Origin: Desulfurivibrionaceae bacterium
Lineage (GTDB): Bacteria; Desulfobacterota; Desulfobulbia; Desulfobulbales; JAGXFP01
Assembly: GCA_046484585.1 (NCBI GenBank)
Contig: JAWOIQ010000148.1
Span: forward strand, 1-59,740
Direction: 5' to 3'
DNA: 59,740 bases
Shown here: positions 30,374 through 51,247 of the stretch, one piece after another
Position numbering within the stretch: position 1 is the first letter of the stretch
Layout of the letters: the number at the start of each line of letters is the position of its first letter
Program-made: the position numbers and the translations under genes
Notes under the pieces: model-generated
The model's input: the letters and a program-made list of their open reading frames with translations, nothing else
Databases searched by the model: none
What the model was told of the DNA's origin: nothing

Positions 30374-30571
30374 TTATAAGTCGGCCATCATCTTTTCGTA
30401 GACCTCGCAAACCCGGCAGTTCTGGATTTTCTGCTCATAGGTGCCCTGGACCTCACCCTTGCAGAGGGTCTTTGCAATACTGAAGCACATTTTCCCGTTA
30501 TCCGGGTAGGCCGGGCAGTCCTTTTCATTACCGCAGTTCATGATTTCCCAGCAATCTCTCTTCTCCGCCAT
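30374..30571 (-). CDS. Small Cys-rich protein (CW-motif type)
   Basis: GAGGTGGGG RBS; CWEIMNC...CPAY...CF...TLC...CRVC. Confidence 0.75.
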   Translation of the reverse strand: MAEKRDCWEIMNCGNEKDCPAYPDNGKMCFSIAKTLCKGEVQGTYEQKIQNCRVCEVYEKMMADL

Positions 30572-30721
30572 TTCCCCACCTCACAAAGTTATCTGAATGA
30601 TAATGAATCAGCCAAGACTCTCTTTCGTTGGCCCTGCTCGTCAACCAATAATTATATCAATTTATTCCCCTGAAATCAAACCAAAACATAGTCCGGCGTC
30701 GTTGGTTTGATTAAAAGGGAG

Positions 30722-33529
30722 TTACGGTTTATGCTCCTTTTTCAACAAGATAGCCTGTTCCGGGTAAATAAGGTCGGGATTGGCGATATCGTTCTCGTTG
30801 GCCACGGATGGATAGTTGTAAGGGGTGCCGGTGAACCGCTTGGAGATAGCCCAAAGGGTGTCCCCCTTTTTTACCGTGTAAACCCGGGTCGGTAAAGGGA
30901 TATTGTCGGGAACTGTAATGGTGAGGGTCGGCCGCTCCCTTTTTAGCGCCCCGGTGACTAATTCCGGGCTGCCGGGAGATGCGGCAAGCGGTTCGTCGGG
31001 CTCGGCGACGGCAGGTTCCGCGGTGGCCGATTTCAGGTCGGCAACGATCTGATTCGCGACTGAAGAGCGATCTTTAGGTACGGTAAGCAGTTTCTCCGGT
31101 TTATGGTCGGGGGGAGACCATAATATAAAAAGATTGATCATCGCCATGAGCAGAAGGGAGAGGAGCACAATCGAGCGTGCCCGGGAACTTCGGTTTTGCC
31201 GCTCAACCGCGGCGGGGAGGGCTGGAGGTAACTCAGCCTCTTCCAGCTGCCGGTTTTCATGGTCTTCTGAAGAGGTCGGTATCGGCGGCTCCTTCTCCGA
31301 GGGGATTTCAGCCTCCCCGCCCAGCAGGGTTTTTTCAAACTCCCGTACCTCGTCTGCCTGCCGCCGCTTTTCGGACTTCTGATCCGGGCCTGAATCCGCG
31401 GCTATTGGTTGCGGCGGCTCTTCGGCTTCCGTTTGTGCTTTTTTCTGAACAAATCGACTCCCCGGTTCTTTTTGCTTTTGCCGGGCGATGATTCGGTGCA
31501 TGCCGGCCAGCAGCTCGGCGGCGTTTTCAGAATTGTCCGTGCCTTGCTCCATCGGCGGGGCCGGCTTAAGAATCTCTTCCGCTGACTGTTCGGCGGAGAT
31601 TGGGGGGTTATTCCCGGCAGCTTCGGCGGCTTCTCTCGCGGGACTTTCCCCGCTAACGCTCATCCCGGAAAGTGATCTGGATGCAATGGCATTTAGCGGG
31701 CTTTCGGGTTCCCGGGGCGATGGCGGGGCGGCATTACCGGCATTCCCGGCAGGTTTCGGCTCTTCGGGCAATTGCCCGGAAGTTCCCGGCTTCAAGGGCA
31801 GGGGGCATTCGGCGGAATGGGGCAATACCATGATCTCGTCATTTAAGGACTGGTCGATCGAGCTCGTTATTCCGCCGCTTTTATCCTCCGGCAGCTCATA
31901 TGTTTTTGCCTTGATCGCTCCCGGTTCCCGGCTGGAATCTGGCGGGGCGGTTATCTCCCTGCCAGGTTGTTGCGTTTTCCGGGTTTCAGCCGGAATCTCG
32001 GGAACTCCCGCGCCGACTTCCGTTTGTTCCCGGAATTTCGCGGGCAAATCCAACAACAAGGTCTTCTCTTTCAATCCGGCAAGGGGCCGGGCTTGCGACG
32101 ATGTATCGGCCAGTCCCGCGGTGTGGGAGGAGAGGAACTCTCTGACGCCGTTTTTGTCGAAACGGGTGGCAAGGTCGGCGGCATTGATGATCAGGCGAAC
32201 CCGGTTGGCATCGGGGTAACACCCGTAAACCAGACTGTCGCTATGGCTGAGCGGCACTTCCTTGTGGATAGACAGCGGCAGTTTCCGGTCCGGAAAGGTC
32301 GATTCGCTGACGATGAAGGCCAGAAAATCACCGTTCTTGATCAGAATCATTTGCCAGTCAAGGCTGATCGGGGAGAAGCGGCCAAAGACCAGGGCCGGGT
32401 CGAGGATGGGTACGATCCTGTCCTGATGCATGATTATCCCGATCACCAGGGATTGGAGACCGGGGAGTTTCCGAAAAGAGCTGACCGGTAAAATATCCTC
32501 GACCTCTTCCCTGGGAAGGGCGTGTTTTTCCCCGAGAAGGATAAACTCCACTACTTCAATATCCCGATGGTTAAAGTGCCGGGAGAATTTTGAATCGAGC
32601 CGGTAGCTGTGTTCGGGCGGGGAGTACTTTTTTTGAGCGGAGAGGTCGGGGTCGAGGATGGCGGGGGGCTCAAGCAGGGGGATCAGCTCCCCGTCGTAAA
32701 CAACGATCGATTTGATCAGCGGTGATTGTGCCAGGGGGGGAAGATGGTGGACGATATACTGATGGTCGCCAATTTCCCCCAGATAAGCATCGACCAGAAG
32801 GAAGAAACGATCTTCGCCGAGATCGATGTTCAACAACCGTTCGGCCTGATCGATTCGCGCAGGCAAATCGATTTTTCCGGTCAGGTCGATGACCGGGCTT
32901 AAGAAATTATCGACAAAAGCCACCCCCTTAATAAAAGGCGGGGTCGCGGGAAGAGCTGTAATGGACAACGGTTTGTCGAAAACGCGATCGGCAATCTCAC
33001 CCGGCAATCCAAAAACTTCTCCGCCGGCCTTGCATAATTTGATGCTTTTCGGTTCCGGGGCCGGCGGCCTTTGGTCGGGCGCCGGGAAAGTGGGCAGGGA
33101 TGGAGTCAGCTTTCCGGCGTTGATGAGCCGGTAGAGGGCTTTTAAATCGATTATCGGTACGGCGCGGCCCCGATAATCGAGGCAGGATGAGATCTCGGCG
33201 GTTGCCAGGTATCGCGGCATCCGGTGGAAGGATTCTTCCCCGATCTCGATTTCGGCAAGCTCCCCGGCGAAGATAAAACCGGACTCTGCCCCCTCACCGG
33301 CGCCAATGATAACTTGGGCAGGATATTTGCCGGCGAAGGAGGGCAGGCCGATCAGGGCCGCGAGATCGGCCAGGGCGATTCTGCGCCTGTCGATCATCGC
33401 CAGGCCGACGATGTGTTCCGGGCTGAACGGCAACCGATGGACCCTTTCGACCTCCATTGCCGTTGCCACATCTTCCTTCCGGACGGCAAAGCGATGATCG
33501 CTCAAGGTGAGTTGGTAGATTGCACTCAT
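30722..33529 (-). CDS. Triple CheW-domain, low-complexity linker, TM, LysM protein
   Basis: Three CheW-like repeats (LPFSPEHIVGL, LPATPPFIKGV, LPGLQSLVIGI); TM IVLLSLLLMAMINLFILW; LysM YTVKKGDTLWAISKRF...NDIANPDLIYPEQAI. Confidence 0.85.
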   Translation of the reverse strand: MSAIYQLTLSDHRFAVRKEDVATAMEVERVHRLPFSPEHIVGLAMIDRRRIALADLAALIGLPSFAGKYPAQVIIGAGEGAESGFIFAGELAEIEIGEESFHRMPRYLATAEISSCLDYRGRAVPIIDLKALYRLINAGKLTPSLPTFPAPDQRPPAPEPKSIKLCKAGGEVFGLPGEIADRVFDKPLSITALPATPPFIKGVAFVDNFLSPVIDLTGKIDLPARIDQAERLLNIDLGEDRFFLLVDAYLGEIGDHQYIVHHLPPLAQSPLIKSIVVYDGELIPLLEPPAILDPDLSAQKKYSPPEHSYRLDSKFSRHFNHRDIEVVEFILLGEKHALPREEVEDILPVSSFRKLPGLQSLVIGIIMHQDRIVPILDPALVFGRFSPISLDWQMILIKNGDFLAFIVSESTFPDRKLPLSIHKEVPLSHSDSLVYGCYPDANRVRLIINAADLATRFDKNGVREFLSSHTAGLADTSSQARPLAGLKEKTLLLDLPAKFREQTEVGAGVPEIPAETRKTQQPGREITAPPDSSREPGAIKAKTYELPEDKSGGITSSIDQSLNDEIMVLPHSAECPLPLKPGTSGQLPEEPKPAGNAGNAAPPSPREPESPLNAIASRSLSGMSVSGESPAREAAEAAGNNPPISAEQSAEEILKPAPPMEQGTDNSENAAELLAGMHRIIARQKQKEPGSRFVQKKAQTEAEEPPQPIAADSGPDQKSEKRRQADEVREFEKTLLGGEAEIPSEKEPPIPTSSEDHENRQLEEAELPPALPAAVERQNRSSRARSIVLLSLLLMAMINLFILWSPPDHKPEKLLTVPKDRSSVANQIVADLKSATAEPAVAEPDEPLAASPGSPELVTGALKRERPTLTITVPDNIPLPTRVYTVKKGDTLWAISKRFTGTPYNYPSVANENDIANPDLIYPEQAILLKKEHKP

Positions 33530-33558
33530 GAATTTGATTTCTGGCGCTAACTCATTTT

Positions 33559-35409
33559 TTAACGTTCGGCGGCAGGCGGTTTCCGGTTGCATTGATGAAC
33601 CGCTTGCTCGGCGGTCGGCGAGGACACGAGCCGGCTTTCATTGTCCAGAATTTCCCGGACCCGGTGCAGTAATTCGTTCGGTAATATCGGCTTGGAAAGA
33701 AAGTGGGCGCCTTCGGTGACCATCCCCTGGTTTTTGATGATATCGGGCGCATAGCCGCTGATGAAAAGGACTTTGGCTTCAGAGGATTCGCGGAGGATTT
33801 CAGCGAAGACCTCCTTGCCGTTTTGTCCCGGCATGATTACATCCAGGATGACCAGTCCGATCGGGTTATCGGCCTCTTTAAATTTAGCAACCGCCTCGTG
33901 GCCGTCCTTGGCCATGATAATCCTGTACCCGTAGCTTCCCAGGATCTCGGACAATAATTTTCTTACCGACTCTTCGTCCTCGGCGATCAGGATGGTTTCA
34001 TTGCCCCCCTCGATCTTGTAAGATTCGGATCGATGTTTCTGGGCAACCGATTTTTCGGTGCAGGGAAGCAGGATCTGGAAGGTCGTGCCATGGCCTTTCC
34101 GGCTGTGGGCGTCTATGTAACCCTTGTGCTGCTTGATGATGCCGTGCACGATGGAAAGTCCCAGCCCGGTGCCCTGCTCCTCATCCTTTGTGGTGTAAAA
34201 TGGCTCGAATATTTTTTCAAGGGTTGCGCCATCCATCCCCTCGCCGTCATCCGAAAATGAAATGCGGGCATATTTACCGGCTCGGTCGAGTTCGAAGGCT
34301 TTCGAGGCTTTTTCGTCAAGGAAGGTTTCAGAAACTTCGATGGTGAAGGTCCCGTTGTCCTTGATGGCGCCACTGGCGTTGGCGGCCATGTTAATTATTA
34401 CCTGCTCCAGCTGACCCGAATCGGCCTTGGCGATCAGCCTGTCTGGAGATGTTTTAATGATAAGTTCGATGTTTTCTCCCAGAATTCTACCCAGGAGTTT
34501 CTCCATGCCCGTGACCACTTCGTTGACATCGACCGGTTTGGGATTCAGGATCTGTTTGCGGCTGAAGGCAAGCAGGCTTCTGGTCACCGCCGCCGCCTTG
34601 TTGGCGGCCGAGAGGATCTCGGTCAAGTTTTCGTGATCGGGATTGTCATTTGCCATGTTCATCAGGCTTAATTCGCTGTAGCCGACGATTGTGGTAAGAA
34701 AATTATTGAAATCGTGGGCAACCCCACCGGCAAGCTGGCCCAGGGCCTCCATCTTCTGAGCCTGGCGCAGCTGGGCTTCGAGCTGCCTGTTTTCGGCCTG
34801 GGTCTCCATGATCTTGGTGACGTCGAAAAAGAAACCCTTGAGATAGATCGCTTTCTCGTCCGTGGTTTCGACGAAAACGAGATCCCTGATCCAGAGGGTT
34901 CGGCCGTCGGCGGTGATCATCCGGTAGACGAGCTCATGGTCCGCGTTTTTTCCCGTGGCGGAAAGGCAGAAGTCCATCGCGAACTCCCGGTCGTCGGGAT
35001 GGATCTTGTCGGCCCAGGACTCGAAATCTATCATTTCCCCGGGCTTGTAACCGGTCAGCGAGGTGAGCCTTTCGCCCATATAGATGAATTTTTGAGTGGC
35101 AACGTCAAGCTTCCACGGTACCGCCGAGGTTGAGTCGATCAGTTTTTTGAGCTCCGTCTCGCTGGCGTTTTTCCCCTTCTCCGAGGCAACCGCCTTTTCG
35201 TAATAATCGGCGATCAGCAACCCGAAAAGAAACATGGTAAACAGGGTCATGCTTCGGATGAAAATCTCGTTGCCAGGGACCTTGAAAATCAGCAGATCCA
35301 GAAAAGAAGCGTCGTAAAAAAGAACGCTGTCCACCCAGGCATCGGTAACTCCGATCAGGATGCCGAAGAGAATGGAAGCGGTGATGATTCTGGTCTTTTT
35401 GGTCATCAT
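33559..35409 (-). CDS. Membrane PAS hybrid histidine kinase (CckA-like)
   Basis: 2 TM, PAS (IHPDDR), AGGVAHDFNN, FEPFYTTK, GTGLGL, C-terminal receiver LDVIMP. Confidence 0.92.
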   Translation of the reverse strand: MMTKKTRIITASILFGILIGVTDAWVDSVLFYDASFLDLLIFKVPGNEIFIRSMTLFTMFLFGLLIADYYEKAVASEKGKNASETELKKLIDSTSAVPWKLDVATQKFIYMGERLTSLTGYKPGEMIDFESWADKIHPDDREFAMDFCLSATGKNADHELVYRMITADGRTLWIRDLVFVETTDEKAIYLKGFFFDVTKIMETQAENRQLEAQLRQAQKMEALGQLAGGVAHDFNNFLTTIVGYSELSLMNMANDNPDHENLTEILSAANKAAAVTRSLLAFSRKQILNPKPVDVNEVVTGMEKLLGRILGENIELIIKTSPDRLIAKADSGQLEQVIINMAANASGAIKDNGTFTIEVSETFLDEKASKAFELDRAGKYARISFSDDGEGMDGATLEKIFEPFYTTKDEEQGTGLGLSIVHGIIKQHKGYIDAHSRKGHGTTFQILLPCTEKSVAQKHRSESYKIEGGNETILIAEDEESVRKLLSEILGSYGYRIIMAKDGHEAVAKFKEADNPIGLVILDVIMPGQNGKEVFAEILRESSEAKVLFISGYAPDIIKNQGMVTEGAHFLSKPILPNELLHRVREILDNESRLVSSPTAEQAVHQCNRKPPAAER

Positions 35410-35562
35410 TTTTGTCGTGACTGGTTGGCGTTTGAATGGTCTCGCAATCGTTTATCAAGCTGGTTGAGCAGTTCTTAACAAATAACACATGTGACAATGT
35501 AGTACAATCCGATTCCGGGCCGGCAAGGTTCAACCCGGGATTGAAACCGAAAATCCTAATCC

Positions 35563-36597
35563 TTACTCATCCATGATAATGCTCGAAAAACCGTTGACCT
35601 GGCTGAGGTTCGCCTCCCTGGCGAAACGGTCATCAATCAGGCCCGTAATCTCGTTGGTTGCTGAAAGGCCGAATTCCACCATCAGGTCGGCCAGTTGCTG
35701 CATTTCGACGGGGTCCGGCGTGAACCGATCGAATCTGACCCGGTCCGTCGGGTTACCCATCACGTAGCTGATCAGCTCTTCCGGCTGATTCCAGTAACCC
35801 GCGGCGATCCGGGCAGCTTCATCGAGATTGGACCGGGCCCAGATCCCGCTTCGGGCCGCGTTCTGGACCAGATTTTTAACGGTTTCCGGTTCCCGGTCTA
35901 TCAGCGACTGATTGGTGATAAGCAGGTTGCAGACAAAATCGGGCCAGACATCCTCGACATAAAAGAGTAAAGAGGAGTCGCCGTTCCGGATGGTCTGGGC
36001 CGCGAAGGGTTCCCCGACAAAATAAGCATCGAGCGCTCCCGTAGCCATGGCCGAGGCCATGTCGGGAGGGTTCATCTCGACGATATTTACGCTCCGGGCC
36101 AAGCCCTGATCGGCAAGGAGGCGGCGCAGGATCAGGTTGTGACCGGAGAAGCGCATGGGCACGGCGATGGTTCCGCCGGCCAGATCGGCCAGTGATTCAG
36201 CCTTGAGATCCTTGCGGGCGACCAGGCTGCTTTCGTGGCGGTTGCCGATATAGACAATCTTGATGTCGCTGCCCTGCTGCCGCAGGACTACGGCCAGCGG
36301 CGCGATGATAAAGGCGGCCTGGATGTGCTCGTTGCGCAGGGCCTCGGCCATTTCGGCAAAAGAGGAAAATTTTAAAGCCTTGTAGCGCGTTCGGCCGTGG
36401 TCGCGGCTGGCATGGTCGAGAAGGGGCGCGGCCAGATTGCTGACCACCGGCATATAGCCCATCCGGATCACCTTCGCCTGGCCCTGGTAGATATTGAACC
36501 GGTAATGGGACCAGGAGATCAGGATCAGCCAGGCTAAGGCGAGAACGGCAATGCGGACCGGCAAGGAGCTATTCTTAAGCGAAACCTTAAACGGCAT
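35563..36597 (-). CDS. NitT/TauT-family ABC transporter substrate-binding protein
   Basis: MGYMPV, IAVPMRFS, MNPPDM, VGEPF; N-terminal anchor. Confidence 0.85.
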   Translation of the reverse strand: MPFKVSLKNSSLPVRIAVLALAWLILISWSHYRFNIYQGQAKVIRMGYMPVVSNLAAPLLDHASRDHGRTRYKALKFSSFAEMAEALRNEHIQAAFIIAPLAVVLRQQGSDIKIVYIGNRHESSLVARKDLKAESLADLAGGTIAVPMRFSGHNLILRRLLADQGLARSVNIVEMNPPDMASAMATGALDAYFVGEPFAAQTIRNGDSSLLFYVEDVWPDFVCNLLITNQSLIDREPETVKNLVQNAARSGIWARSNLDEAARIAAGYWNQPEELISYVMGNPTDRVRFDRFTPDPVEMQQLADLMVEFGLSATNEITGLIDDRFAREANLSQVNGFSSIIMDE

Positions 36598-37381
36598 AAC
36601 TGACTCCGAGCATAAAAAAGATTTCTTCCCTCAACTCCTGCAACTCCGGCGCGGTTTTCGGGTCGCGGGGATGGGGGAAGTCCAGCTTGCGGTTCAGCTT
36701 CACCTGGGCCGGGCGGCCGCTCAGGATCACGACCCGGTCGCCCATGATCAGGGCATCGTCGATATTATGGGTGACCAGCAGGATAGTCTTGCCCAGATAA
36801 AGATGCATGTTGACTACTTCCTCACGCATCTTCATGTGAGTCAGGAAATCGAGGCCGCTGAACGGTTCATCCATGATAAGCATCTCAGGGTTGACCACCA
36901 GGGCGCGGGCCAGTTCGGCCCGGCGCTGCATGCCGCCGGACAACTGGTGGGGATAGTGGTTTTCGAAGCCTTCCAGCTCGACCATGTCGATATACTCCTG
37001 AATGGTCTCTTCCCGTTCGACGGGATCATTGAGCCGGCGGATCCCGAGTTCGATATTCTGCCAGACCGTCATCCAGGGCAGCAGGCCGTTATGCTGATAT
37101 ACGAAGATGTTGTCGGGACTTGGTTTCGACAGTTGGTGACCGTCCTGCAAAACCCGGCCGGAGCTCGGTTGCTCGAAACCGGCGATAATCCGCAGCAGGG
37201 TCGATTTTCCGCAGCCCGATGGTCCCAGGATACAGACCATCTCCCCGGCCTCGAATTCAAGGTCCAGATCCTCAAGGACCGTTACCGTCCGGTCGGATTC
37301 AGGCCTGCCGTCCTTATCCCGCTTATGTTGACGCCGTTCGATAAACTCTTTGTTCAGATTTTCGATGAGGATGTGGCCCAT
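36587..37381 (-). CDS. NitT/TauT-family ABC transporter ATPase
   Basis: GPSGCGKST, LSGGM, MDEPF, VTH. Confidence 0.93.
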   Translation of the reverse strand: MGHILIENLNKEFIERRQHKRDKDGRPESDRTVTVLEDLDLEFEAGEMVCILGPSGCGKSTLLRIIAGFEQPSSGRVLQDGHQLSKPSPDNIFVYQHNGLLPWMTVWQNIELGIRRLNDPVEREETIQEYIDMVELEGFENHYPHQLSGGMQRRAELARALVVNPEMLIMDEPFSGLDFLTHMKMREEVVNMHLYLGKTILLVTHNIDDALIMGDRVVILSGRPAQVKLNRKLDFPHPRDPKTAPELQELREEIFFMLGVSYAV

Positions 37382-37425
37382 GGTAGTTGTTTTTCCTGAA
37401 AAAATTGCAGGGTGACCGAACTCGG

Positions 37426-38196
37426 TTATCTGTGGCCCATGGTTCCCCAGGCCGCCGACTCGATGTTCATCAGCTGGCGCATAATGTAGTCGAGCAGCAG
37501 GCCGATCACCCCGATCACCACCATGCCGACCATCACATAGTCCATGCGCAGGGCATTTCTGGAGTCAAGGATCAGATAGCCAAGGCCTGACTGAACCGCG
37601 ATCATCTCCGCCGCTACCACTACCAGCCAGGCGATGGTTATGGAGAGCCGCAGGGCCGTGACGATGGCCGGAATGGTGGCGGGAACCATAATCTTGGTAA
37701 AGCTTTCCAGCCGGCTGAAATTGAAATTGTTTGCAACCTGAAAATAGATAGGATTGATCGAGCGGACGGCGATGGTAGTTGCGACCAGCAGGGGAAAGAA
37801 GCTGGAAAGAAAGATCAGAAAGATTGCCGGCAAGTCGCCGATCCCGAACCACAGCATCGATAAGGGAATCCAGGCCAGTGGCGAGATGGGCCGCAGGAAA
37901 TGGATAACCGGATTTACCATGAGACGCAGAGGTTTGCATCTGCCCAGACACATTCCCAGAGGAATGCCCAGGAACATGGCCAGATAAAAACCGGCGGTGA
38001 CCCGATACAGACTGGCTATCGAATGCCTGATCAGGGTGCCGTTGCCGGTCAGTTCGATCAGACTGGCCAGGACCGCCCCCGGCCCCGGGAATATCTGGGC
38101 GCTCCAGCCGCTGAAACGGGCGGTCAGTTCCCAGAGCGTCAGGGCGCCCAGAAAGGCGGCAGCGGCATAAATAAAGGCTGGTTTTGAGGATTCCAT
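37426..38196 (-). CDS. NitT/TauT-family ABC transporter permease
   Basis: LRPISPLAWIPL, VVAAEM, GLGYLI. Confidence 0.92.
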   Translation of the reverse strand: MESSKPAFIYAAAAFLGALTLWELTARFSGWSAQIFPGPGAVLASLIELTGNGTLIRHSIASLYRVTAGFYLAMFLGIPLGMCLGRCKPLRLMVNPVIHFLRPISPLAWIPLSMLWFGIGDLPAIFLIFLSSFFPLLVATTIAVRSINPIYFQVANNFNFSRLESFTKIMVPATIPAIVTALRLSITIAWLVVVAAEMIAVQSGLGYLILDSRNALRMDYVMVGMVVIGVIGLLLDYIMRQLMNIESAAWGTMGHR

Positions 38197-38270
38197 CGGA
38201 TAATTTTCTCTGCCCCGGTTCCGGTGCTAAACCGTAGAGGAGGGCGGTGTGGGTAAGGAGATGGCTTCGA

Positions 38271-39203
38271 TCATGATTTTTCGCCGCGAAGTTCCTCGGC
38301 CAGTTCCATATATTGGCGGGCCGAACTGCTGTTGGCGTCATATTGGGCGACGGGAACGTTCATTATTTGCGACTCCTGAAGTTTTACATCGAAGTCGATG
38401 GTGGTCGCGAAGACCTTGTCCCTGTATTTGTTTTTGATCTTGTCATGGATCACCTTGGTGGCGGTGCTGTTCTCGTTGAACATGGTGATCAGGATTTTGT
38501 AATCGATACTGTCGTTCTGTTTGCGCCTGACGATATCGATTACTTCCTCAATATGGGCGACGCCGTGCATCGACAGGTATTCGCACTGGGTCGGGATTAT
38601 TACGAAATCGGAGGCCATCAGGGCGTTTAAGGTAAAAAATTCGATGGTGGGCGGTGTGTCGATGATGATATGGTCGACCTTGTCCTTGATCCCTTCCAGT
38701 TTATCCCGGAGTATTTGTTCGAAGTTAGGCCGGTTGATATTCTTTTTCATCAACAGAGCCAGATTCGGTCCGGACGGCAGCAGCCAGAGATTAGAGTACT
38801 TGGTTCTGGTAATTACATTGGCGAGGGTGGCGCCGGGGACATGGAGCAGATCGTAAAAGGTTCTGTTTTGCCGGTTGAGCCCCAGGGCGATGGTCAGACT
38901 TGCCTGCATGTCGAAATCGATCAACAGCACCCGTTTGCCGCGCAGGGCCAGGGCCATGCCCAGATTGATGGCGCTGGAGGTTTTGGCGACCCCGCCTTTC
39001 TGGTTGCTGACGGCAATGATCCGATGGGGAGGGACGGCCGGCAGGGCCGCTTCTTCCGGCAGATCAAGGGGTTTTATCTCCTCGGGCTTCTGGACGGTAA
39101 AGATCTTGCCGCATTTTGAGCACTTGACCTTGAAGATCGACTGGCTGATCAGTTCATCGGCAACATTGTAGCGGGTTTCGCACTGTTCGCAGGTGATTAT
39201 CAT
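38271..39203 (-). CDS. ParA-family ATPase with N-terminal MJ0042-type zinc ribbon
   Basis: CEQC...CSKC; deviant Walker A NQKGGVAKT; LIDFDMQ; IIDTPP. Confidence 0.9.
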   Translation of the reverse strand: MIITCEQCETRYNVADELISQSIFKVKCSKCGKIFTVQKPEEIKPLDLPEEAALPAVPPHRIIAVSNQKGGVAKTSSAINLGMALALRGKRVLLIDFDMQASLTIALGLNRQNRTFYDLLHVPGATLANVITRTKYSNLWLLPSGPNLALLMKKNINRPNFEQILRDKLEGIKDKVDHIIIDTPPTIEFFTLNALMASDFVIIPTQCEYLSMHGVAHIEEVIDIVRRKQNDSIDYKILITMFNENSTATKVIHDKIKNKYRDKVFATTIDFDVKLQESQIMNVPVAQYDANSSSARQYMELAEELRGEKS

Positions 39204-39290
39204 GTCGTAACTCTTTCCTTACGGCCCTTTATTGCCGTCCTTGCTGTCCGGATTGCCCGGGTTATTTCGTTTTAAGCGGCTTAACGGACC

Positions 39291-40331: not shown

Positions 40332-40383
40332 ATAGGTCCCGTATTATTTCGTGGTCCAGGTTGCCGAGCCGCGAAACACTTCT

Positions 40384-43539: not shown

Positions 43540-43553
43540 TCTCTGATTAGTTA

Positions 43554-43695
43554 GTGCATGTCCATAAATGGTCTTTTTGCCCGATAACTTCGTCGCCGCG
43601 GAGTCGGAAAGTGCTCACGTACCTGAGTACGCTGCGCTTTTCCGACATCCTTGCTTTTCGTTCTCGGACAAAAATCCTCATTTATCGACAGACAC
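43554..43695. repeat. Palindromic element F
   Basis: Imperfect TIR GTGCATGTCCATAAATG / CATTTATCGACAGACAC, nested stems, centre CGTAC-CTGA-GTACG; supplies the stop codon of the upstream gene. Confidence 0.75.
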
Positions 43696-44434
43696 CAGGT
43701 TGCGATTTCCCGGCGTCGTTTTTGGCTAATGCCATATTTCCCCGCAAGGTTACGTCGAAGAATTCGAATTGGCTGGTGAGATCCTGCATCTGCACCAATT
43801 CCGCCCTGATTAGTTCGAGACGGTCCAGAATCTGTTCCCGGGAAACTCCCTGGGGTTTCTCCAGGGTTTTGATGGTCTCTTCGACAATCCCCAGATTGTG
43901 GTCGCTGAGATTCCAGACCAGCAGGAGAACCTCTTGCAGATTCATGGCCAGGGAGTTGACGTTTTCACCGATCGCGCCGATCGAACAGCCGGCGTTCTCG
44001 CTGTCCCGGACCAGACGGTCCAGGCGGCCGTCGGCCATGTCCCGGCTGAACTTCTCGAGTTTATCAAGGGGCTGAATAATGTTACGGACGAAAAAGACCA
44101 TAAACAGGATCAGGATGCCCGCCAGAACCAGGGTCATGACGGTCAAGCCGAATTCCAGGGCGACATGGGTGCGGGCCAGGGCTTCATTGCCGAGGGTTGC
44201 CGGGTTTTTGCCGGCTTGCTGTTTGTCGTCGGCAATGGCGATGGTATCCAAGATCGCCTCGCCCCGGTTATGGTGGTAAATGGCAACGACACTCAAGAGC
44301 GAAGCCAGCAGAATCAGGATGGTGAAAAAAACCAGGGTTTTCTGGTGGAGCCCGGAACCGATTACACCCAGCCGATTATTGGAGGGCCCGGAATCCATTT
44401 CCAATTTGGAGCTTAACAAAGCGCAGTTCTCCAT
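43682..44434 (-). CDS. 2TM-HAMP protein without a signalling domain
   Basis: Two TM helices, IIQPLDKLEKFSRDMADGRL...IGAIGENVNSLA HAMP, short coiled-coil tail; AAAGG RBS before ATG 44434. Confidence 0.75.
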   Translation of the reverse strand: MENCALLSSKLEMDSGPSNNRLGVIGSGLHQKTLVFFTILILLASLLSVVAIYHHNRGEAILDTIAIADDKQQAGKNPATLGNEALARTHVALEFGLTVMTLVLAGILILFMVFFVRNIIQPLDKLEKFSRDMADGRLDRLVRDSENAGCSIGAIGENVNSLAMNLQEVLLLVWNLSDHNLGIVEETIKTLEKPQGVSREQILDRLELIRAELVQMQDLTSQFEFFDVTLRGNMALAKNDAGKSQPGVCR

Positions 44435-44459
44435 TGTTATGTACCTTTTGGGCTGTGCC

Positions 44460-44630
44460 GAATATTCGTAACCGTTCAGCAGTACCACATCTTCGGACGA
44501 TCGGCCCGGCTTACGTACACGAGGTACGCGGCGCCGGTCCGCTTGTCCAAATCTGCGCCACTGCTGAACGGTTACAGGCCGGCAGTTTTGGGTACTTTGG
44601 CGACCGCCCCGGTGAACGGTTAAGAATATT
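44460..44630. repeat. Palindromic element G
   Basis: Perfect 16-bp TIR GTAACCGTTCAGCAGT (44468-44483) / ACTGCTGAACGGTTAC (44560-44575); centre CGTAC-ACGAG-GTACG; second right end TGAACGGTTAAGAATATT at 44613-44630. Confidence 0.8.
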
Positions 44631-44656
44631 AAGGCCTGAACCCTGGGGAGCGGTGG

Positions 44657-45010
44657 TCATATTCCGTTGATCAGATCCAGGATTTCGGCGGCCTTGTACT
44701 TGTTGACGAAACCGACGGCGCCCATCTCCTCCACCTCTTTCTGGTACTTCGCCTCGTTAAGGTTCGAGAGGAAGATGATCTGGGCGTTCGCGTCAAGATT
44801 TAAAATCTCCCTGGCGGCGGTAATGCCGTCCATGCCCCGCATGGTGATGTCCATGGTCACCAGATCCGGTTTCAACTCCTGATACATCTCAACCGCCTCT
44901 TCCCCGCTTTTGGCCTGGCCGATTACGATGTGGCCGGGGGGATTCAGGATATTGGCGATCATTTTTCGCATCATCGATGAATCATCAACTACCAGAATGC
45001 GTTTACTCAT
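44657..45010 (-). CDS. cheY: Single-domain response regulator
   Basis: ILVVDDS, PDLVTMDITM, conserved Lys; located within the che cluster. Confidence 0.85.
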   Translation of the reverse strand: MSKRILVVDDSSMMRKMIANILNPPGHIVIGQAKSGEEAVEMYQELKPDLVTMDITMRGMDGITAAREILNLDANAQIIFLSNLNEAKYQKEVEEMGAVGFVNKYKAAEILDLINGI

Positions 45011-45011
45011 G

Positions 45012-45530
45012 CTATTCGTCCCCTTCGGCTTCATCCATTGACTTTAGTTTCTTGAACTCTTCCTGCAACAGAATCCGTTTAAAATCGAGGAGGATCAGCA
45101 GCTGGGCGCCGATATCGCAAACCCCCCGCAGATACTGGCTTTCCAGCCCGGCCTTGATGATGTCGGGCGGCGCTTCGATGGTGTTCTCCTGGATCTTTAT
45201 AACCTCGGTTACCGAGTCGACAATAAAGCCGGTGGTCTTGTTCTGGATATCGAGGATCAATATCCAGGTGTCATCGTGATCGGACTCGCTGCTCAGTAAA
45301 CTCAAGCGTTTACGCAGATCGATAACCGGCAGGATGTTGCCGCGCAGGTTGATGACTCCTTCCACGAATTCCGGTGAGTTTGGAACCGGGGTTATCGGGG
45401 CGGCCCGGATGATCTCCTGAACCATTAAGATATCGACACCGAACAGCTCCTTGCCGATCGTGAAACCGACCAGCTGCATCAACTCCTGTTCGGCTTCAAG
45501 TTTCTCGGTAGCTGCATACCTGTCAGCCAT
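45012..45530 (-). CDS. cheW: Chemotaxis coupling protein
   Basis: FGVDILMVQEII, VPNSPEFVEGVINLRGNILPVIDL, GFIVDSV. Confidence 0.95.
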   Translation of the reverse strand: MADRYAATEKLEAEQELMQLVGFTIGKELFGVDILMVQEIIRAAPITPVPNSPEFVEGVINLRGNILPVIDLRKRLSLLSSESDHDDTWILILDIQNKTTGFIVDSVTEVIKIQENTIEAPPDIIKAGLESQYLRGVCDIGAQLLILLDFKRILLQEEFKKLKSMDEAEGDE

Positions 45531-45696
45531 GGCGTGGTTTCTCCCTTCACTGGTAAAATTTTTGGTCAGCCGCGGAAAAGGGCAACCGGGTTTTTGAGTT
45601 AAAAAAACAGCAGCGCCGCCGCGGGGTGGATGGGTTTGAGCGAAAACACACCCCGCGCGGCGACATCGAGTATCAAAAACCAGCGGTTCCGGCCGG

Positions 45697-48255: not shown

Positions 48256-48372
48256 GGCACCCTCCTCCTTTTGTGAGTTTGCTTAATTCAGTTGTAGTTT
48301 TTTCGTAAAAATATGCTTAAGCGGCCCCGCGGCCGCAGTTCTTCCCGGCTGAAACCGCCCCGTCTCCAGGGG

Positions 48373-49413
48373 TCAGGCACAACATAAATTTATCGCCGCG
48401 GCCAGGCCGGTGTCACCTACGACAAACTTTGTCCGGCATCTGGCCAGGGCGTTTTCGGGCATTTCCCGGTACATGCATGATCGCGGTTTCTGGACGACGG
48501 CCTCGCCGCCGTGGGCGATGATTTCGCCGAGGCCTTCGGCTCCGTCGTCGCCGGTGCCGGAGAGGATCACGCCTACGCTCTTCCGGCCGACCAACTCCGC
48601 GGTCGACAGCATCAGCATGTCTATTGCGCCGCGCCGGGTCGAGAAGGGGGCCGGGCTGACATGGAGCAGAAATTCACCGTCCTCTTCGCGGATGGTTATG
48701 TACTCGTCCCCGGAGCCTATGTAGCAGACCCCTTTTTTCAAGGGGGCGCCCTCGGCAGCCCTTCTGACCGGCAGCTCTGAACATCGGTCCAGATAATCGA
48801 CAAAAGCGTCGATGTGCTCGGTGGCCGCGTAAAGGATTGCGATGCAGGCGGCGGACAGTCCGGGGTCGAGGCCGGGGATGAATTTCAGCAGGGCGCTGTA
48901 ACCGCCCTCGGCCGCGCCGATGATGACAATTCTTTTTATTATCTCGTCGCTGGTTCCGGCGGCGGCCGGAGATTTTCGGACCCCGGTTCTGATGAATTGC
49001 ATGGCCTCCAGTTCCACTCCGGCGGCGGTTGCTACCTTGTCGGTTATTTTAGCGGTTTGATCCCGCATGTCGCCGGCGAGGGAGGATGGTTTGGCGAGGA
49101 AGTCCACGGCCCCGTATTTCAGGGAGTCGAAGGTCACGGTGGCGCCGTCCCTGGTGAGGGTGCTGAGCATTATGGTCGGAGTCGGGAATTGGATCATCAT
49201 GTGCTTCAGGGTGGTGATGCCGTCCATTCCCGGCATGTTGACGTCCAGGACGATCACATCCGGGCTCAACCGGGGAATCAGCCGCAGGGCCTCGCTGCCG
49301 TTCACCGCCTCGCCCACAACCTCCATGGCGTTGTTGGCCGCGAAGATGTCCTTGACCGCTTTTCGCATCAAGCCTGAGTCGTCGACAATCAGTATTCTGG
49401 TTTTTCGGGCCAT
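48373..49413 (-). CDS. cheB: Second CheB-like response regulator with degenerate methylesterase site
   Basis: Intact receiver (VDDS, LDVNMP, KP); GAAEGG in place of GASTGG, LYA in place of QHM, GDDGA retained. Confidence 0.85.
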   Translation of the reverse strand: MARKTRILIVDDSGLMRKAVKDIFAANNAMEVVGEAVNGSEALRLIPRLSPDVIVLDVNMPGMDGITTLKHMMIQFPTPTIMLSTLTRDGATVTFDSLKYGAVDFLAKPSSLAGDMRDQTAKITDKVATAAGVELEAMQFIRTGVRKSPAAAGTSDEIIKRIVIIGAAEGGYSALLKFIPGLDPGLSAACIAILYAATEHIDAFVDYLDRCSELPVRRAAEGAPLKKGVCYIGSGDEYITIREEDGEFLLHVSPAPFSTRRGAIDMLMLSTAELVGRKSVGVILSGTGDDGAEGLGEIIAHGGEAVVQKPRSCMYREMPENALARCRTKFVVGDTGLAAAINLCCA

Positions 49414-49498
49414 GTTTTAACTTTAAAAAAGCTGATTCGTTGTTCGGGTTATCCCGTTTCTTGAGGACCGGCGGCAAACAGATGAGAGCAGGCCCCGG

Positions 49499-51247
49499 TT
49501 ACTTTAAATATTTTCTGACTCTGGCAGTCAATTCTTCCGGGGTAAAGGGTTTGGTCAGATATTCGTTGCAGCCGGACATCCTGCCCTTGACCTTGTCGAT
49601 CATGCCGTCCCTGGCCGTAAGCATGATGACCGGAATTTTCCTGAAATTGCTGTTGTGTTTCATGGTGGATAAAACCTGATAACCGTCCATGCCCGGCATG
49701 ACGATGTCAAGGAGAACCAGGTCCGGGGTCATCTCGTTGAACCTGGCCATTGCCTCGATGCCGTCTTTTGCCTCAATAACGTCAAAACCTTCATGCCGGA
49801 GGATGACGGTGATCACCTTGCGGGTGGTGGCGCTGTCCTCGACCACCAGGACCGTTTTGTCCCGGCGGTTTTCGGTGGCGGCAACAATTTTTTTATTCGG
49901 CGCCTGATCGGAGTTATCGCCCATGGGCAGCTCGACATTGGCCATATGGTCCAGGAGGAGGTTCAGTTGCCGGCGGTACTGTTCATTGTCCGGCTCAAGT
50001 TTTCTGGTCTTGTATAATTGGTCGAGCCCCTCTTCCCATTGATTGCTATTAAGATGGGCCAAGGCGAGGTTGAAGTGGACCCGATGCTTTTTCTCGACCA
50101 GAATAATCTTGGTGTACCGGTGGATCGCCTGGTCGATGATCTCTTTGTTTACCTGTTTTTTGGGAGATCTCAGCATGGCCGGGGTAATCCGGAAATAGGC
50201 CTTGCAGTGCGCGCAGGACTCGGGACTTTCGATATAGGGGGTCCGGCAGAAAGGGCAGTGTCTGATGGTCGTGCTTTTGGAGCAGCCATTTTCGTAGGCT
50301 ACTTGCAGCTTTTTGATTTCCTCGCCGACTTCCGGATCGTTCTCCGCCAGGATTTTGGCGTTATCCAGGGCGGCCTCAACCGCTTTTATGTTGTCGGTCA
50401 CCCTGGAATACCAGAGCCAGGCCTCGCTATTGCGCGGATTCTGTTTCAGCAGGGTAGCCAGCATCTGCTGGGCCTGCTTGTTCTCGTTGGCTTCCGCCCG
50501 CCTGATTGCCTGGTAGAGCAGATCTCGGGTGTCGGACTTTTTGAGCGGCTCGGAAGATATCACATCTTTTTTAAGCTCATCCTTGCGCCTGGCGCTTTCC
50601 AGGATCAAGGTTTTGAGTCCGAAGCCGATTTTTTTTTCCTGTTTTTCCTCGGGTAGACTTTTTATCCGGAGCCTGGCGCTTTTCCAGCCGATCATGGTCA
50701 TGGCCGCGCGATCGGCGGTCAGATCTTGATATTCCGCATTGTGGAGCCTGCCCTTGACGAAGTAGAAGCGGCCGGTCTCCTTCCTGGCGTTGCTGGCTTC
50801 CAGGATACAGCTCTTCTCTTCCATTTCGATAAGCTGCAGAAAGCCGGCGACGGAGAGGCCGTCAAGGGAGGTACCCTGTTCGAACTGGGCCAGGGCATCG
50901 ATGATGGCGTTGGCGAGGGCCTGGAGATCAATGGGTTTTTCGAGATAGTGAAAGATGCCGCGCTGGTCGAGGATATCTTGAATTTCGGCGCTGCCGAAGG
51001 CGGTCATGACGATGCAGGGGACTCTGGGCTGATTCTGGCTCATGTAGGCGAGCAGTTCCAGGCCGTCCATCTTCGGCATGTAAAGATCGGTAACCAGAGC
51101 GGAAACAGTCTCTTTTTTGAGCAGGCATACCGCTTCTTCACCGTTGGCGGCGGTCAGGATCTCGAAATCGGATTCGTATTTCCGCAGACCCAGGACGATG
51201 GGGTTCAGCAGTTCCTGGGAGTCGTCGACGATCAGCACCTTGTTCAT
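49499..51247 (-). CDS. REC-DUF4388/PATAN-TPR-zinc ribbon-TPR-REC regulator (PatA/PilG-like)
   Basis: TDLYMP receiver; LQLIEMEEKSCIL...GRFYFVKGRLHNA; AWLWYS TPR; CPFC/CAHC; C-terminal PVIMLTARDGMIDKVKGRMSGCNEYLTKPF. Confidence 0.85.
   Translation of the reverse strand: MNKVLIVDDSQELLNPIVLGLRKYESDFEILTAANGEEAVCLLKKETVSALVTDLYMPKMDGLELLAYMSQNQPRVPCIVMTAFGSAEIQDILDQRGIFHYLEKPIDLQALANAIIDALAQFEQGTSLDGLSVAGFLQLIEMEEKSCILEASNARKETGRFYFVKGRLHNAEYQDLTADRAAMTMIGWKSARLRIKSLPEEKQEKKIGFGLKTLILESARRKDELKKDVISSEPLKKSDTRDLLYQAIRRAEANENKQAQQMLATLLKQNPRNSEAWLWYSRVTDNIKAVEAALDNAKILAENDPEVGEEIKKLQVAYENGCSKSTTIRHCPFCRTPYIESPESCAHCKAYFRITPAMLRSPKKQVNKEIIDQAIHRYTKIILVEKKHRVHFNLALAHLNSNQWEEGLDQLYKTRKLEPDNEQYRRQLNLLLDHMANVELPMGDNSDQAPNKKIVAATENRRDKTVLVVEDSATTRKVITVILRHEGFDVIEAKDGIEAMARFNEMTPDLVLLDIVMPGMDGYQVLSTMKHNSNFRKIPVIMLTARDGMIDKVKGRMSGCNEYLTKPFTPEELTARVRKYLK

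Follow-up and report, generated by a model that had tools for sequence, protein, structure and literature searches.

We observed that a 15-gene cluster within the 59,740-nucleotide stretch analysed here (the window) forms the only chemosensory pathway in a member of the Desulfobacterota that lacks flagella. Its gene content and synteny follow a widespread conserved order: CheB-like 1, long MCP, CheW, CheY, small HAMP protein, long CheA with additional Hpt-like segments that have no His, CheB-like 2, zinc-ribbon ParA and an NMT1/SsuA-type ABC importer. Many uncultured sediment bacteria carry most of these genes. Both CheB-like proteins have lost the catalytic triad, no cheR is linked to the cluster, and in relatives a PATAN domain is fused to a CheB-like domain. 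On balance, we lean towards a reading in which this sole pathway, of the conserved cluster kind, works free of methylation, with output through the PATAN regulator, placement of the array by ParA and a hold on the wall by a LysM protein.

Using Pfam and NCBIfam domain calls, the cluster was seen as a minus-strand run of 15 co-oriented genes, read from 51247 to 30374 (Table 1). The gene order and domain content that the initial annotation had given for these 15 genes agreed with the coordinates and with both profile sets. Intergenic distances, calculated manually from the gene positions, range from -11 to about 220 bp, with gaps of 150-153 bp ahead of the kinase gene and ahead of the two-CW gene. 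A scan of the region returned 11 promoter-like sites (9.4 expected) and 31 terminator-like sites (26.4 expected); since these counts were no higher than chance, the sites were not used for defining operons. The region's best promoter-like match sits directly upstream of the two-CW gene. A search of sequencing runs for positions 36000-45900 listed no RNA run, and the best DNA runs had a share of 0.23. The two-CW protein scored 53.3 bits against the curated NF045718 cut-off of 35, and it is kept in the related genomes G005 and G001. The substrate-binding protein scored 109.5 bits with the NCBIfam SsuA_fam model, under the cut-off of 163.5. The start of CheW was placed at an internal Met of the ORF 45012-45725, and the alignments of relatives begin at about residues 1-18 of this short form. 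For the small membrane protein, relatives' alignments begin at residues 10-18 and the HAMP match is sub-threshold (17.8 bits, cut-off 25). This small HAMP protein is present in related clusters too, and the Protein Atlas gave nothing but HAMP clusters without names for it, mostly from Thermodesulfobacteriota.

Table 1. Genes of the chemosensory cluster, in order of reading, with their positions in the window
Gene product	Coordinates	Strand	Basis and remarks
REC-PATAN (DUF4388)-TPR-CxxC...CxxC-REC regulator, 582 aa	49499..51247	-	Pfam; first gene of cluster
CheB-like protein 1, receiver + CheB_methylest	48373..49413	-	Pfam, 1A2O alignment
Chemoreceptor (MCP), 852 aa	45697..48255	-	4HB_MCP_1, HAMP, MCPsignal (3.9e-41)
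CheW, 172 aa	45012..45530	-	Pfam CheW 1.1e-36
CheY-like single receiver domain	44657..45034	-	Pfam 5.8e-25
Small membrane protein, weak HAMP	43682..44488	-	Two hydrophobic segments; likely start 44437
CheA, 1051 aa	40384..43539	-	Hpt (2 stretches), H-kinase_dim, HATPase_c, CheW
CheB-like protein 2, receiver + CheB_methylest	39291..40331	-	Pfam, 1A2O alignment
Zn-ribbon ParA-type ATPase	38271..39203	-	Zn_ribbon_4 (1.8e-14), AAA_31/ParA (2.8e-49)
ABC transporter permease	37426..38196	-	BPD_transp_1
ABC transporter ATPase	36587..37381	-	ABC_tran
NMT1/SsuA-like substrate-binding protein	35563..36597	-	NMT1_2; N-terminal hydrophobic segment
Membrane PAS hybrid histidine kinase	33559..35409	-	PAS_3, HisKA, HATPase_c, receiver
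CheW3-TM-LysM protein, 935 aa from Met22 of ORF (ORF 30722-33592)	30722..33529	-	CheW x3, LysM
Two-CW domain protein, 65 aa, eight Cys	30374..30571	-	NF045718

The draft genome is 98.4% complete, and profile searches were run over all of its contigs. A single CheA and a single MCP (one MCPsignal match) were found in the whole genome, both in the cluster, and this supports the earlier claim of sensing through one receptor. Flagellin_N and Flg_bb_rod gave 0 matches each in the whole-genome search, and so did each of CheD, CheC, CheX and CheZ. The window does lack cheR, cheD, cheC/X/Z and flagellar genes, as had been claimed, and the same lack extends genome-wide for all these genes except cheR. 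CheR (PF01739) has one match genome-wide, on contig C48, outside the cluster. It belongs to a protein (contigs C55/C48) in which CheR is fused to an EE-rich coiled coil, PAS domains and a CheB domain that has no receiver, and it fits the self-contained MAC type. Its CheB domain has the Ser, His and Asp all present, and with this intact triad the fusion might conceivably modify the receptor. The CheA clade was also seen in 21 other genomes. It provides the only CheA in eight of them, none of which has flagellin, while all eight of the 21 genomes with flagellin carry at least two CheAs.

The receptor is very long, as the initial annotation had stated, with about 211 and 213 residues flanking the hairpin tip. 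The cytoplasmic arms have about 30 heptads each, a count taken from the arm lengths for comparison with the long 58H and 64H classes. Hydrophobic segments were found at residues 8-38 and 354-392, together with a HAMP domain and a periplasmic domain that spans about 315 aa; the C-arms of relatives' MCPs have 204-271 residues. When we examined CheA, the HTIKG histidine was present in the first Hpt only. At the equivalent place, both of the later Hpt-like segments carry SSANYM, in line with their description as pseudo-Hpt. No C-terminal receiver was found in CheA by Pfam. In a CheA tree (FastTree), all long-CheA clusters fell into a single clade, inside which the canonical f29 family is nested; no order of events is claimed from this tree, since it is midpoint-rooted and support values are not shown.

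Each of the CheB-like proteins has a receiver (PF00072, 2.8e-23 and 2.2e-22) with the receiver Asp retained, and a CheB_methylest domain (PF01339, 4.3e-36 in CheB-like 1 and 1e-38 in CheB-like 2). On alignment to Salmonella CheB (1A2O), whose triad positions we take to be Ser164, His190 and Asp286, CheB-like 1 reads Ala-Tyr-Asp and CheB-like 2 reads Thr-Asp-Asp. The Ser-His-Asp triad is missing in each, and both are indeed atypical CheBs as had been proposed. In the 80 metagenome loci that hold the CheB-like 2 type there are 109 CheB-like ORFs, and none of them keeps the canonical triad. A CheR-like match was found in 0/80 of these loci, with a query that recovered 12/12 known CheR loci as a control. 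Since both triads are lost and no cheR is linked here or in the 80 related loci, classical methylation adaptation, which the initial annotation had taken to be absent, is unlikely. The clade is not uniformly methylation-free, since the f29 family retains a canonical CheB plus a cheR adjoining the cluster. A methylation-site regex, built on what we presumed to be the consensus, found 0 sites in the cluster MCP. This regex was uninformative, since it failed as well on clusters keeping CheB and CheR, where two of three MCPs gave 0 sites and the only match in the third, at residue 247, was not in the signalling arms.

The homologues of CheB-like 2 were without the His in 120/120 cases, reading T/S/N - E/D - D, and from these residues CheB-like 2 belongs to a conserved subfamily and is not a case of random decay. 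The Thr/Ser with Glu/Asp and Asp could also be an alternative catalytic set and not a dead site. One could thus argue that methylation adaptation persists, with CheB-like 2 acting as a hydrolase through its Thr/Ser-Glu/Asp-Asp set and with CheR supplied in trans, by the C55/C48 fusion or from unlinked genes in relatives. We consider this quite unlikely. The replacement residues are conserved, as is the protein (56-88% identity across the 80 loci), but cheR is linked in none of these loci. A Ser-His-Asp CheB domain does run into a CheR domain in this genome; however, the multidomain protein that contains this only CheR brings along an EE-rich coiled coil and PAS domains of its own. CheR is encoded somewhere in 19/21 related genomes, the exceptions being G001 (95% complete) and G385 (89%), where it had no match. 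The CheB-like 1 orthologues of G361 and G127 retain Ser, His and Asp, whereas the two CheB-like proteins studied here score under the NCBIfam CheB cut-off of 293 (257.4 for CheB-like 1 and 263.2 for CheB-like 2).

Conservation of the cluster was counted over the same 80 metagenome loci, with denominators that vary by item. CheA lies ahead of CheB-like 2 in 55/57 loci, and CheW (19/19), CheY (19/19), CheB-like 1 (18/19) and the MCP (17/19) are similarly regular. The zinc-ribbon ParA, which has an N-terminal MJ0042-type zinc ribbon and KGGVAKT in its translation, follows CheB-like 2 in 55 of 63 loci and is missing in the other eight. ParA is hence a conserved member of the cluster, as the initial annotation had it. 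The three ABC genes were the most constant accessory, being found downstream in 41/43 loci, where they hold their position after parA or after CheB-like 2. In two more families (f75 and f112) they adjoin the cluster as well. The PAS hybrid kinase is a variable accessory, and is missing at the equivalent place in G007. The co-occurrence expected of pseudo-CheB, Zn-ParA and CheW-LysM was only partly seen: ParA accompanied CheB-like 2, but the CheW3-LysM gene was linked in only three of 26 sufficiently long metagenome loci.

We further examined the CheW3-LysM protein. PF01584 matches it in three stretches, giving the CheW.III architecture. The CheW-like domains begin at about residue 1, so there is no separate N-terminal region. 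They are followed by a linker of about 320 aa that is rich in Glu, Pro, Ala and Ser (net charge -16) and by a single hydrophobic segment at residues 804-828, with basic residues before it and a C-terminal LysM after it. The family has 371 representatives at E<=1e-30. Its linkage to che genes was seen in this genus and in the three metagenome loci, and in L166 and L178 the gene comes directly after parA. In 23/23 Nitrospirota and Gallionella-type loci it lies apart from che genes; in the Gallionella-type loci it is found between receiver-GGDEF and PAS-GGDEF-EAL genes. A single positioning and cell-wall anchoring module, as originally proposed, is therefore not one unit, since CheW3-LysM forms a separate family. 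We also considered whether CheW3-LysM travels with CheB-like 2 and rejected this, as the best CheB match was only 30-38% identical in 12/12 Nitrospirota/Gallionella-type genomes. Within the genus, CheA and CheW3-LysM were both found in four genomes and both not found in three.

These data also bear on whether the genes downstream of parA (ABC, hybrid kinase, CheW3-LysM and two-CW) are chance neighbours with independent functions, which we think very unlikely. The ABC genes keep their place in 41/43 loci over 56-88% identity and stand beside the cluster in f75 and f112 as well, and this argues against chance. The kinase, missing in G007, would be easier to explain in that way, as would the 150-153 bp gaps before the kinase and two-CW genes and the promoter-like site upstream of the latter. 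The rarity of CheW3-LysM in the long metagenome loci and its separation from che genes in other phyla point in the same direction. On the other hand, the gene order is held in G001 although the LysM protein there is only 40-44% identical, the gene directly follows parA in two metagenome loci, and the CheW-like domains have just one CheA and one MCP in the genome available to bind.

The PATAN regulator gave matches to Response_reg (two, 5.6e-53), DUF4388 (2.6e-11) and TPR_16 (6.2e-08), and its translation contains a CPFC...CAHC motif. It is 97% identical in G005 and 73% identical in G001. Single-protein fusions of PATAN, receiver and CheB_methylest were found in three families of relatives; among the 120 fusion homologues listed, 114 had all three Pfam domains, one being from Desulfomonile tiedjei. 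In cyanobacterial regulators the PATAN domain binds PilB1 and PilC, according to the available part of a preprint (bioRxiv 10.1101/2021.06.11.447907). The present genome has two PilT-family genes over the cut-off, and PilD and a PilZ protein are encoded within the window. On contig C85 the order is Roadblock, Ras-like GTPase, TPR-MshEN-T2SSE ATPase and receiver-PATAN. An output to type IV pili or cell polarity, as the initial annotation had suggested, is thus plausible.

The pathway might instead serve a different cellular function. It could, for example, regulate the ABC importer, act on gene expression by way of the hybrid kinase, or control matrix or c-di-GMP physiology. We regard this as unlikely. 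The constancy of the ABC genes would suit it, as would a TauE exporter that lies within a related cluster, the PAS hybrid kinase of the window cluster and the GGDEF-type neighbours of CheW3-LysM in Gallionella-type loci. However, PATAN is the sole recurring output-type domain in the clusters, and by Pfam the cluster encodes no DNA-binding or GGDEF output. Elsewhere in the genome, receiver-PATAN genes either neighbour a T2SSE ATPase and an MglA/MglB-like pair or form fusions with Roadblock, and the experimental report cited above, in its available part, ties PATAN to the pilus motor.

In the reading that we favour, the single receptor would control CheA, and it may sense the substrate-binding protein of the cluster's own transporter in its loaded state. 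A complex prediction between residues 31-344 of the substrate-binding protein and a dimer of the receptor periplasmic domain (residues 39-353) scored 0.00 with 9-row alignments, and is evidence neither way. CheA would then pass phosphoryl groups to the receivers of CheY, the PATAN regulator and both CheB-like proteins. The PATAN domain may in turn signal to the ATPase of a type IV pilus, or to an MglA/MglB-like polarity module whose genes lie in another part of the genome. The CheB-like domains, having presumably lost demethylation, would act as phosphorylation-dependent receptor-docking or regulatory modules; adaptation, if any, would for this reason proceed without methylation. ParA would place the array. 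The LysM protein of this genus would insert its three CheW domains into the array baseplate, and with its long acidic linker and periplasmic LysM it would hold the array to the cell wall, so tethering it to peptidoglycan. A bolder proposal is conceivable, although we think it rather doubtful: a phylum-spanning class without receptor methylation, whose CheB-like domains, now docking modules switched by phosphorylation, would ferry PATAN output domains, either fused or separate, on and off the array. Its input would be a loaded binding protein from the co-encoded ABC importer, and in one genus a single protein uniting the roles of ParP (CheW-like insertion) and HubP (LysM anchor, acidic linker) would staple the very tall array to peptidoglycan.

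How chemosensory pathways adapt and give an output without methylation or flagella is poorly understood. The gene set offers a natural test case, as the methylation pair is lost while two or three CheB-like proteins are still under selection, physically tied to PATAN, the only domain for which contact with the pilus motor has been shown. The fixed link with an ABC importer gives a route to studying the coupling of receptor and binding protein, and the CheW3-LysM family suggests that arrays may be fixed to the wall by means unlike HubP and FimV. Since the cultured Desulfomonile tiedjei carries a PATAN-CheB fusion, bench tests are feasible. Full-text literature searches gave no description of CheW with LysM, of PATAN/DUF4388 with CheB or of a CheB-like pseudoenzyme. 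The gene set was likewise not described in the full texts found for F4 systems and cable bacteria chemotaxis, or in the Geobacter and Desulfuromonas papers examined.

Compared by domain architecture, CheA may resemble the F4 class in its three Hpt-like segments and in having no C-terminal receiver, but two of the three segments here are without the His. The F classes are predicted to be flagellar, whereas flagellin was found neither here nor in the eight single-CheA relatives. PatA-type regulators, like that of the cluster, have PATAN (DUF4388) and a receiver and are encoded first in the che locus. PATAN comes first in PatA; in the cluster regulator it comes after the receiver. The cyanobacterial Tax/Pix systems are, to our knowledge, also without CheB and CheR. 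They too belong to pilus-bearing, non-flagellated organisms and have a PATAN regulator first in the che locus (bioRxiv 10.1101/2021.06.11.447907, available part). Unlike them, the present cluster has the order receiver-PATAN-TPR-receiver, a CheA without a C-terminal receiver, a much longer receptor, CheB-like proteins (fused to PATAN in relatives), ParA and an ABC importer.

Pil-Chp of Pseudomonas aeruginosa (Tfp class) shares the presumed output through type IV pili and the extra Hpt domains in CheA, some without the phospho-accepting His. In the available text on this system ChpA ends in a receiver (PMC10782961), unlike the cluster CheA, and PilK and ChpB form an active methyltransferase/methylesterase pair (PMC12129077, also in part). 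Pil-Chp is without PATAN, ParA or ABC genes. Proteins with three CheW-like domains (CheW.III) are described as rare, and as linked to an unusual receptor in Vibrio cholerae, in the accessible part of one preprint (bioRxiv 10.1101/2022.05.07.491037). The cluster protein adds to this the linker, transmembrane segment and LysM; the term 'LysM' has 0 occurrences in the accessible parts of two preprints on CheW domains.

The array-positioning system ParC/ParP/HubP of Vibrio, as presented in the available text of three papers (PMC5706961, PMC8789113, PMC12918733), is similar in three respects. The gene for a ParA-type ATPase comes after cheA and cheB, a protein with CheW-like domains is proposed to enter the array, and a protein with LysM, transmembrane and acidic regions provides a link to the cell wall. 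The ParA of the present cluster, which may position the array, is like ParC in its ParA type and gene position; here it has a zinc ribbon, and there is no flagellum. Judged by sequence layout, CheW3-LysM may differ from ParP in the N-terminal ParC-binding region, for which there is no separate stretch ahead of its CheW-like domains. Its acidic region and single transmembrane segment are all that it has in common with HubP and FimV, and Pfam found no FimV C-terminal domain in it. Its topology is reversed, with the CheW domains N-terminal and cytoplasmic and the LysM C-terminal and periplasmic, whereas the LysM of HubP is N-terminal. Thus, in contrast to Vibrio, where they belong to ParP and HubP, the CheW-like domains and the LysM here share one polypeptide.

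We observed that 15 co-oriented minus-strand genes make up the cluster, and that neighbouring genes either overlap by at most 11 bp or are separated by gaps of up to about 220 bp (computed by hand from the coordinates). Every domain named in the initial annotation was confirmed with Pfam and NCBIfam, and the gene cluster observed there could be extended to loci of the genus, the phylum and metagenomes. The LysM protein (CheW3-LysM) is 935 aa long and starts at Met22 of its ORF in the public protein collection; counted from there, it no longer seems to overlap the kinase gene. The 1.7 kb that separate the cluster from the upstream kinase, in which only ORFs without a Pfam match were seen, may contain the promoter region of the cluster. 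A similar kinase also lies upstream of the cluster in two other genomes of the genus (G005 and G001). On the downstream side, the genes for the prepilin peptidase and the PilZ protein are 3-4 kb from the cluster.

Features of the cluster, its flanks and related loci (positions in the window unless a contig C of the source genome G000 or a fetched locus L is named)
Feature	Position	Strand	Remark
Cluster, 15 genes	51247 to 30374	-	
Gene 1, receiver-PATAN(DUF4388)-TPR-CxxC/CxxC-receiver protein		-	Pfam/NCBIfam
Gene 2, CheB-like 1	48373-49413	-	
Gene 3, MCP		-	852 aa
Gene 4, CheW		-	
Gene 5, CheY		-	
Gene 6, membrane protein, two segments		-	weak HAMP match
Gene 7, CheA		-	1051 aa
Gene 8, CheB-like 2	39291-40331	-	
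Gene 9, ParA		-	MJ0042-type zinc ribbon at N-terminus
Zinc ribbon of ParA	38271-38390	-	residues 1-41
Genes 10-12, ABC permease, ATPase, NMT1/SsuA-like binding protein		-	
Gene 13, membrane PAS hybrid kinase		-	
Gene 14, LysM protein	30722-33529	-	three CheW-like domains, one transmembrane segment, C-terminal LysM
Gene 15, two-CW domain protein	 	-	65 aa; NCBIfam
ORF without Pfam match	51611-52879	+	1.7-kb stretch
ORF without Pfam match	51532-51948	-	1.7-kb stretch
Second PAS hybrid histidine kinase with receiver	52995-55109	-	upstream of cluster
Prepilin peptidase (A24)	26345-27130	-	just downstream of cluster
PilZ-domain protein	27654-28208	+	just downstream of cluster
Secreted double-SH3 protein	29803-30243	+	just downstream of cluster
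Orphan CheW gene, then two single-receiver genes	C154:144-1487	-	3-kb contig
CheR match	C48:5-382	+	opens contig
Third CheB domain	C55:225-752	-	
Roadblock/LC7 (MglB-like), Ras-like GTPase (MglA-like), unannotated 658-aa protein, TPR-MshEN-T2SSE ATPase, receiver-PATAN	C85:2373-9568		in that order
Receiver-PATAN-Roadblock fusion	C201 (L013)		
TauE/SafE sulfite-exporter gene and HAMP protein	L111:3886-5275	-	G361, family f75

We further searched the whole assembly of the source genome (3.38 Mb in 213 contigs, of which the window is C205, rated 98.4% complete) for the relevant protein families. A single CheA dimerisation domain and a single MCP signalling domain were found, both within the cluster, and the assembly gave no match for flagellin, the flagellar rod protein, CheD, CheC, CheX or CheZ. 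CheW-like domains were confined to the cluster and one orphan CheW. The sole CheR match continues in frame into an EE-rich coiled coil and PAS domains, and a third CheB domain, which has an intact Ser-His-Asp triad and no receiver, gives way at its contig end to a CheR N-terminal domain. These pieces (C55 and C48) are probably one MAC1-type CheB-CheR-coiled-coil-PAS protein split by the assembly, and this fusion is not a dedicated receptor methyltransferase. Contig C55 also bears a two-CW domain match.

Both CheB-like proteins were aligned to the CheB of structure 1A2O, and the residues at the triad positions (which we take to be Ser164, His190 and Asp286) were read off. CheB-like 1 has Ala, Tyr and Asp at these positions, and CheB-like 2 has Thr, Asp and Asp. 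Both retain the receiver aspartate, and both score under the NCBIfam CheB cut-off. The alignments indicate that the two proteins have different histories. Comparison with its 120 best homologues (59-100% identical, and including MAGs labelled Desulfobulbaceae, Desulfobacteraceae, Competibacteraceae and Gammaproteobacteria) places CheB-like 2 in a tightly conserved subfamily: the His position is Glu or Asp in all 120, and the Ser position is Thr in 91, Ser in 27 and Asn in 2. The loss of the triad in CheB-like 1 looks more recent, its orthologues reading S-H-D in two phylum relatives (G361 and G127), S-Y-D in a third (G385), and A-H-D and A-Y-D in G005 and G001. Among the 43 CheB-like ORFs of 20 phylum loci and the genus loci, Ser-His-Asp was retained in 8 (two in clusters of another type, L043 and L045, four in family f29, and two CheB-like 1 orthologues of f75). 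It was seen in none of the 109 CheB-like ORFs of the best 80 of 391 metagenome loci, and the Ser position was Gly in all nine long CheB-like ORFs of metagenome loci.

These metagenome loci came from a contig scan in which aligned CheB-like 2 homologues served as the query; of the 391 relatives that it gave, we retained the best 80 loci (56-88% identity). As the 80 are interrelated, the following figures are counts and not independent trials, each taken over the loci long enough to show that neighbour: CheA precedes CheB-like 2 in 55/57, CheW and CheY each lie upstream in 19/19, CheB-like 1 in 18/19 and an MCP in 17/19; the next gene is a zinc-ribbon ParA in 55/63 or the ABC permease, with no ParA, in 8/63; and all three ABC genes follow on the same strand in 41/43. 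The zinc ribbon was present in 55 of 55 adjoining ParA genes; in the phylum families f72, f29 and f25 it was not matched in ParA. In the window, the ribbon gives a weak NCBIfam match (E 1.7e-05) to the N-terminus of GltJ, a Myxococcus gliding protein. A set of 14 CheR queries, one of which alone detects 12/12 Pfam-confirmed CheR loci, gave no CheR-like match in the 80 loci.

Within the genus, G005 retains the entire gene order at 80-98% identity, as does G001 (CheA 68% and LysM protein 40-44% identical), and G007 has the same order minus the hybrid kinase, as far as its contig end. Of the seven other genomes, three encode full-length relatives of the LysM protein. CheA was found in G000, G001, G005 and G007, and also in G003 (56% complete), there on a fragment of a contig. 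G002, G004 (95% complete) and G006 gave no match to CheA or to the LysM protein. Since these genomes are kin, this shared pattern of presence and absence no more than hints that the two genes were gained or lost together. In the phylum, 400 genomes were searched with CheA P3-P5, and relatives were seen at 60% identity in f75 and at 44-51% in f72, f112, f29, f25, f93, f108, f85, f22 and f62. The first 20 of the 30 loci listed were fetched, and the recurring pattern was CheB-like, CheW, long MCP, CheY, often a HAMP protein, long CheA, ParA and CheB-like. ParA was present in 13 of the 20, NMT1-type ABC genes adjoined the cluster in five, and the LysM protein was found in none. CheR adjoins the cluster only in f29 (G052, G093); it had no match anywhere in G001 and G385, and in the other non-f29 genomes lies on other contigs. 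In f75, a TauE/SafE gene and a HAMP protein stand between parA and the ABC genes, a position which hints that the transporter may handle sulfonates. The C-terminal arms of the MCPs are 204-220 residues long in this clade (245-271 in f112). Nearly all of the receptors (the window MCP and L037-L129) end with a conserved (E/D)QFK(V/I)-like motif in the last 8 residues, which may be a docking site, with the CheB-like domains as candidate partners.

The LysM protein has a single hydrophobic segment (804-828, ORF numbering) with RSSRARS before it and about 125 residues ending in LysM after it, and with this layout the CheW domains should be cytoplasmic and the LysM periplasmic. Some 320 residues, rich in Glu (42), Pro (39), Ala (40) and Ser (30) and with a net charge of -16, link the CheW domains to the segment. 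The receptor arms run to about 211-213 residues, which at 0.15 nm per residue would put the baseplate about 30 nm from the membrane, whereas a receptor of 36 heptads would measure about 19 nm. To span that distance, a CheW protein anchored in the membrane would have to have a long, flexible linker. The CheW3-LysM proteins form a genuine, sizeable family: 371 of 1.84 billion representatives matched its profile at E<=1e-30, and 103 of the 150 best members have a late hydrophobic segment and a terminal LysM-like motif. Genome contigs of Nitrospirota and Gallionella-type MAGs carry members at 29-35% identity. Neither CheA nor ParA was present within the flanks of these 23 loci; the neighbours were receiver-GGDEF, PAS-GGDEF-EAL, D-Ala-D-Ala carboxypeptidase or housekeeping genes, and the CheB matches of these genomes were ordinary only (30-38% identity). 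This absence of che linkage indicates that the putative anchor is an independent module, which entered the cluster in this genus and in a few lineages besides. Among the metagenome loci, a CheW3-LysM match lay downstream of CheB-like 2 in 3/26. One of the three, L147, has the window's own gene order; in L166, as in the shorter L178, the LysM gene comes directly after parA. In a Desulfobacterales MAG contig (L072), the contig end truncates a LysM-ending gene, after which come receiver, CheA, CheW, MCP, CheR-like and CheB genes, the che genes being of an ordinary cluster type.

As proposed in the initial annotation, the receptor is single and long, the methylation pair is missing and ParA is a conserved member. 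The integrated anchoring module proposed there is borne out only in part: the LysM protein is in the cluster in this genus, but apart from che genes in the Nitrospirota and Gallionella-type loci. Beyond gene content, every mechanistic step is inferred.

When we examined the PATAN regulators, PATAN-receiver-CheB_methylest proteins (Pfam) were seen in the clusters of three families (L121, L126, L111), some with an extra N-terminal receiver, and L126 has an additional PATAN-receiver protein between CheA and CheB-like 2. A search with the L121 fusion found all three Pfam domains in 114 of the 120 homologues listed; one such homologue comes from Desulfomonile tiedjei (6.5-Mb genome). These fusions link the CheB-like proteins and the PATAN regulator in function. 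In cyanobacteria, according to passages of Han et al. (bioRxiv 10.1101/2021.06.11.447907), the PATAN domain of PatA-type regulators is by itself enough to reverse phototaxis and binds PilB1 and PilC, and these regulators are mostly the first gene of the che locus, as is the PATAN regulator here. The source genome has four further receiver-PATAN proteins, one of them the last in the gene row of contig C85 and another the Roadblock fusion. It also has two PilT-family genes that score above the curated cut-off, and T2SSE ATPases were matched five more times. This CheA clade is the only CheA in 8 of the 21 other carrier genomes, and flagellin was found in none of those 8; the 8 genomes with flagellin all have at least two CheAs. 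Together with the PATAN evidence, these counts suggest a non-flagellar output, for which type IV pili or polarity would be the simplest plausible candidates.

The system is of clear interest to the chemotaxis field. Full-text literature searches found no published description of CheW-LysM fusions, PATAN-CheB fusions or triad-less CheB, and MiST may already assign these CheAs to a class. The layout of cheA, cheB-like, parA and, further on, a cheW-like gene resembles that of Vibrio ParC/ParP, whose order we take to be cheA-cheB-parC-parP. CheAs of the Tfp and ACF classes can have extra His-less Hpt domains, and those of class F4 have three Hpt domains, in the portions of PMC10782961 that treat them. 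Tfp and ACF CheAs typically carry a receiver, which the CheA of the cluster lacks; F classes are predicted to be flagellar, and the genome here is without flagella. Proteins with three CheW domains are a known rare architecture (in part of bioRxiv 10.1101/2022.05.07.491037), although those are without the membrane anchor and LysM seen here. The LysM protein falls outside the definition of HubP, but its design resembles the LysM, acidic region and transmembrane segment of HubP/FimV, as these are outlined in sections of PMC5706961, PMC8789113 and PMC12918733.
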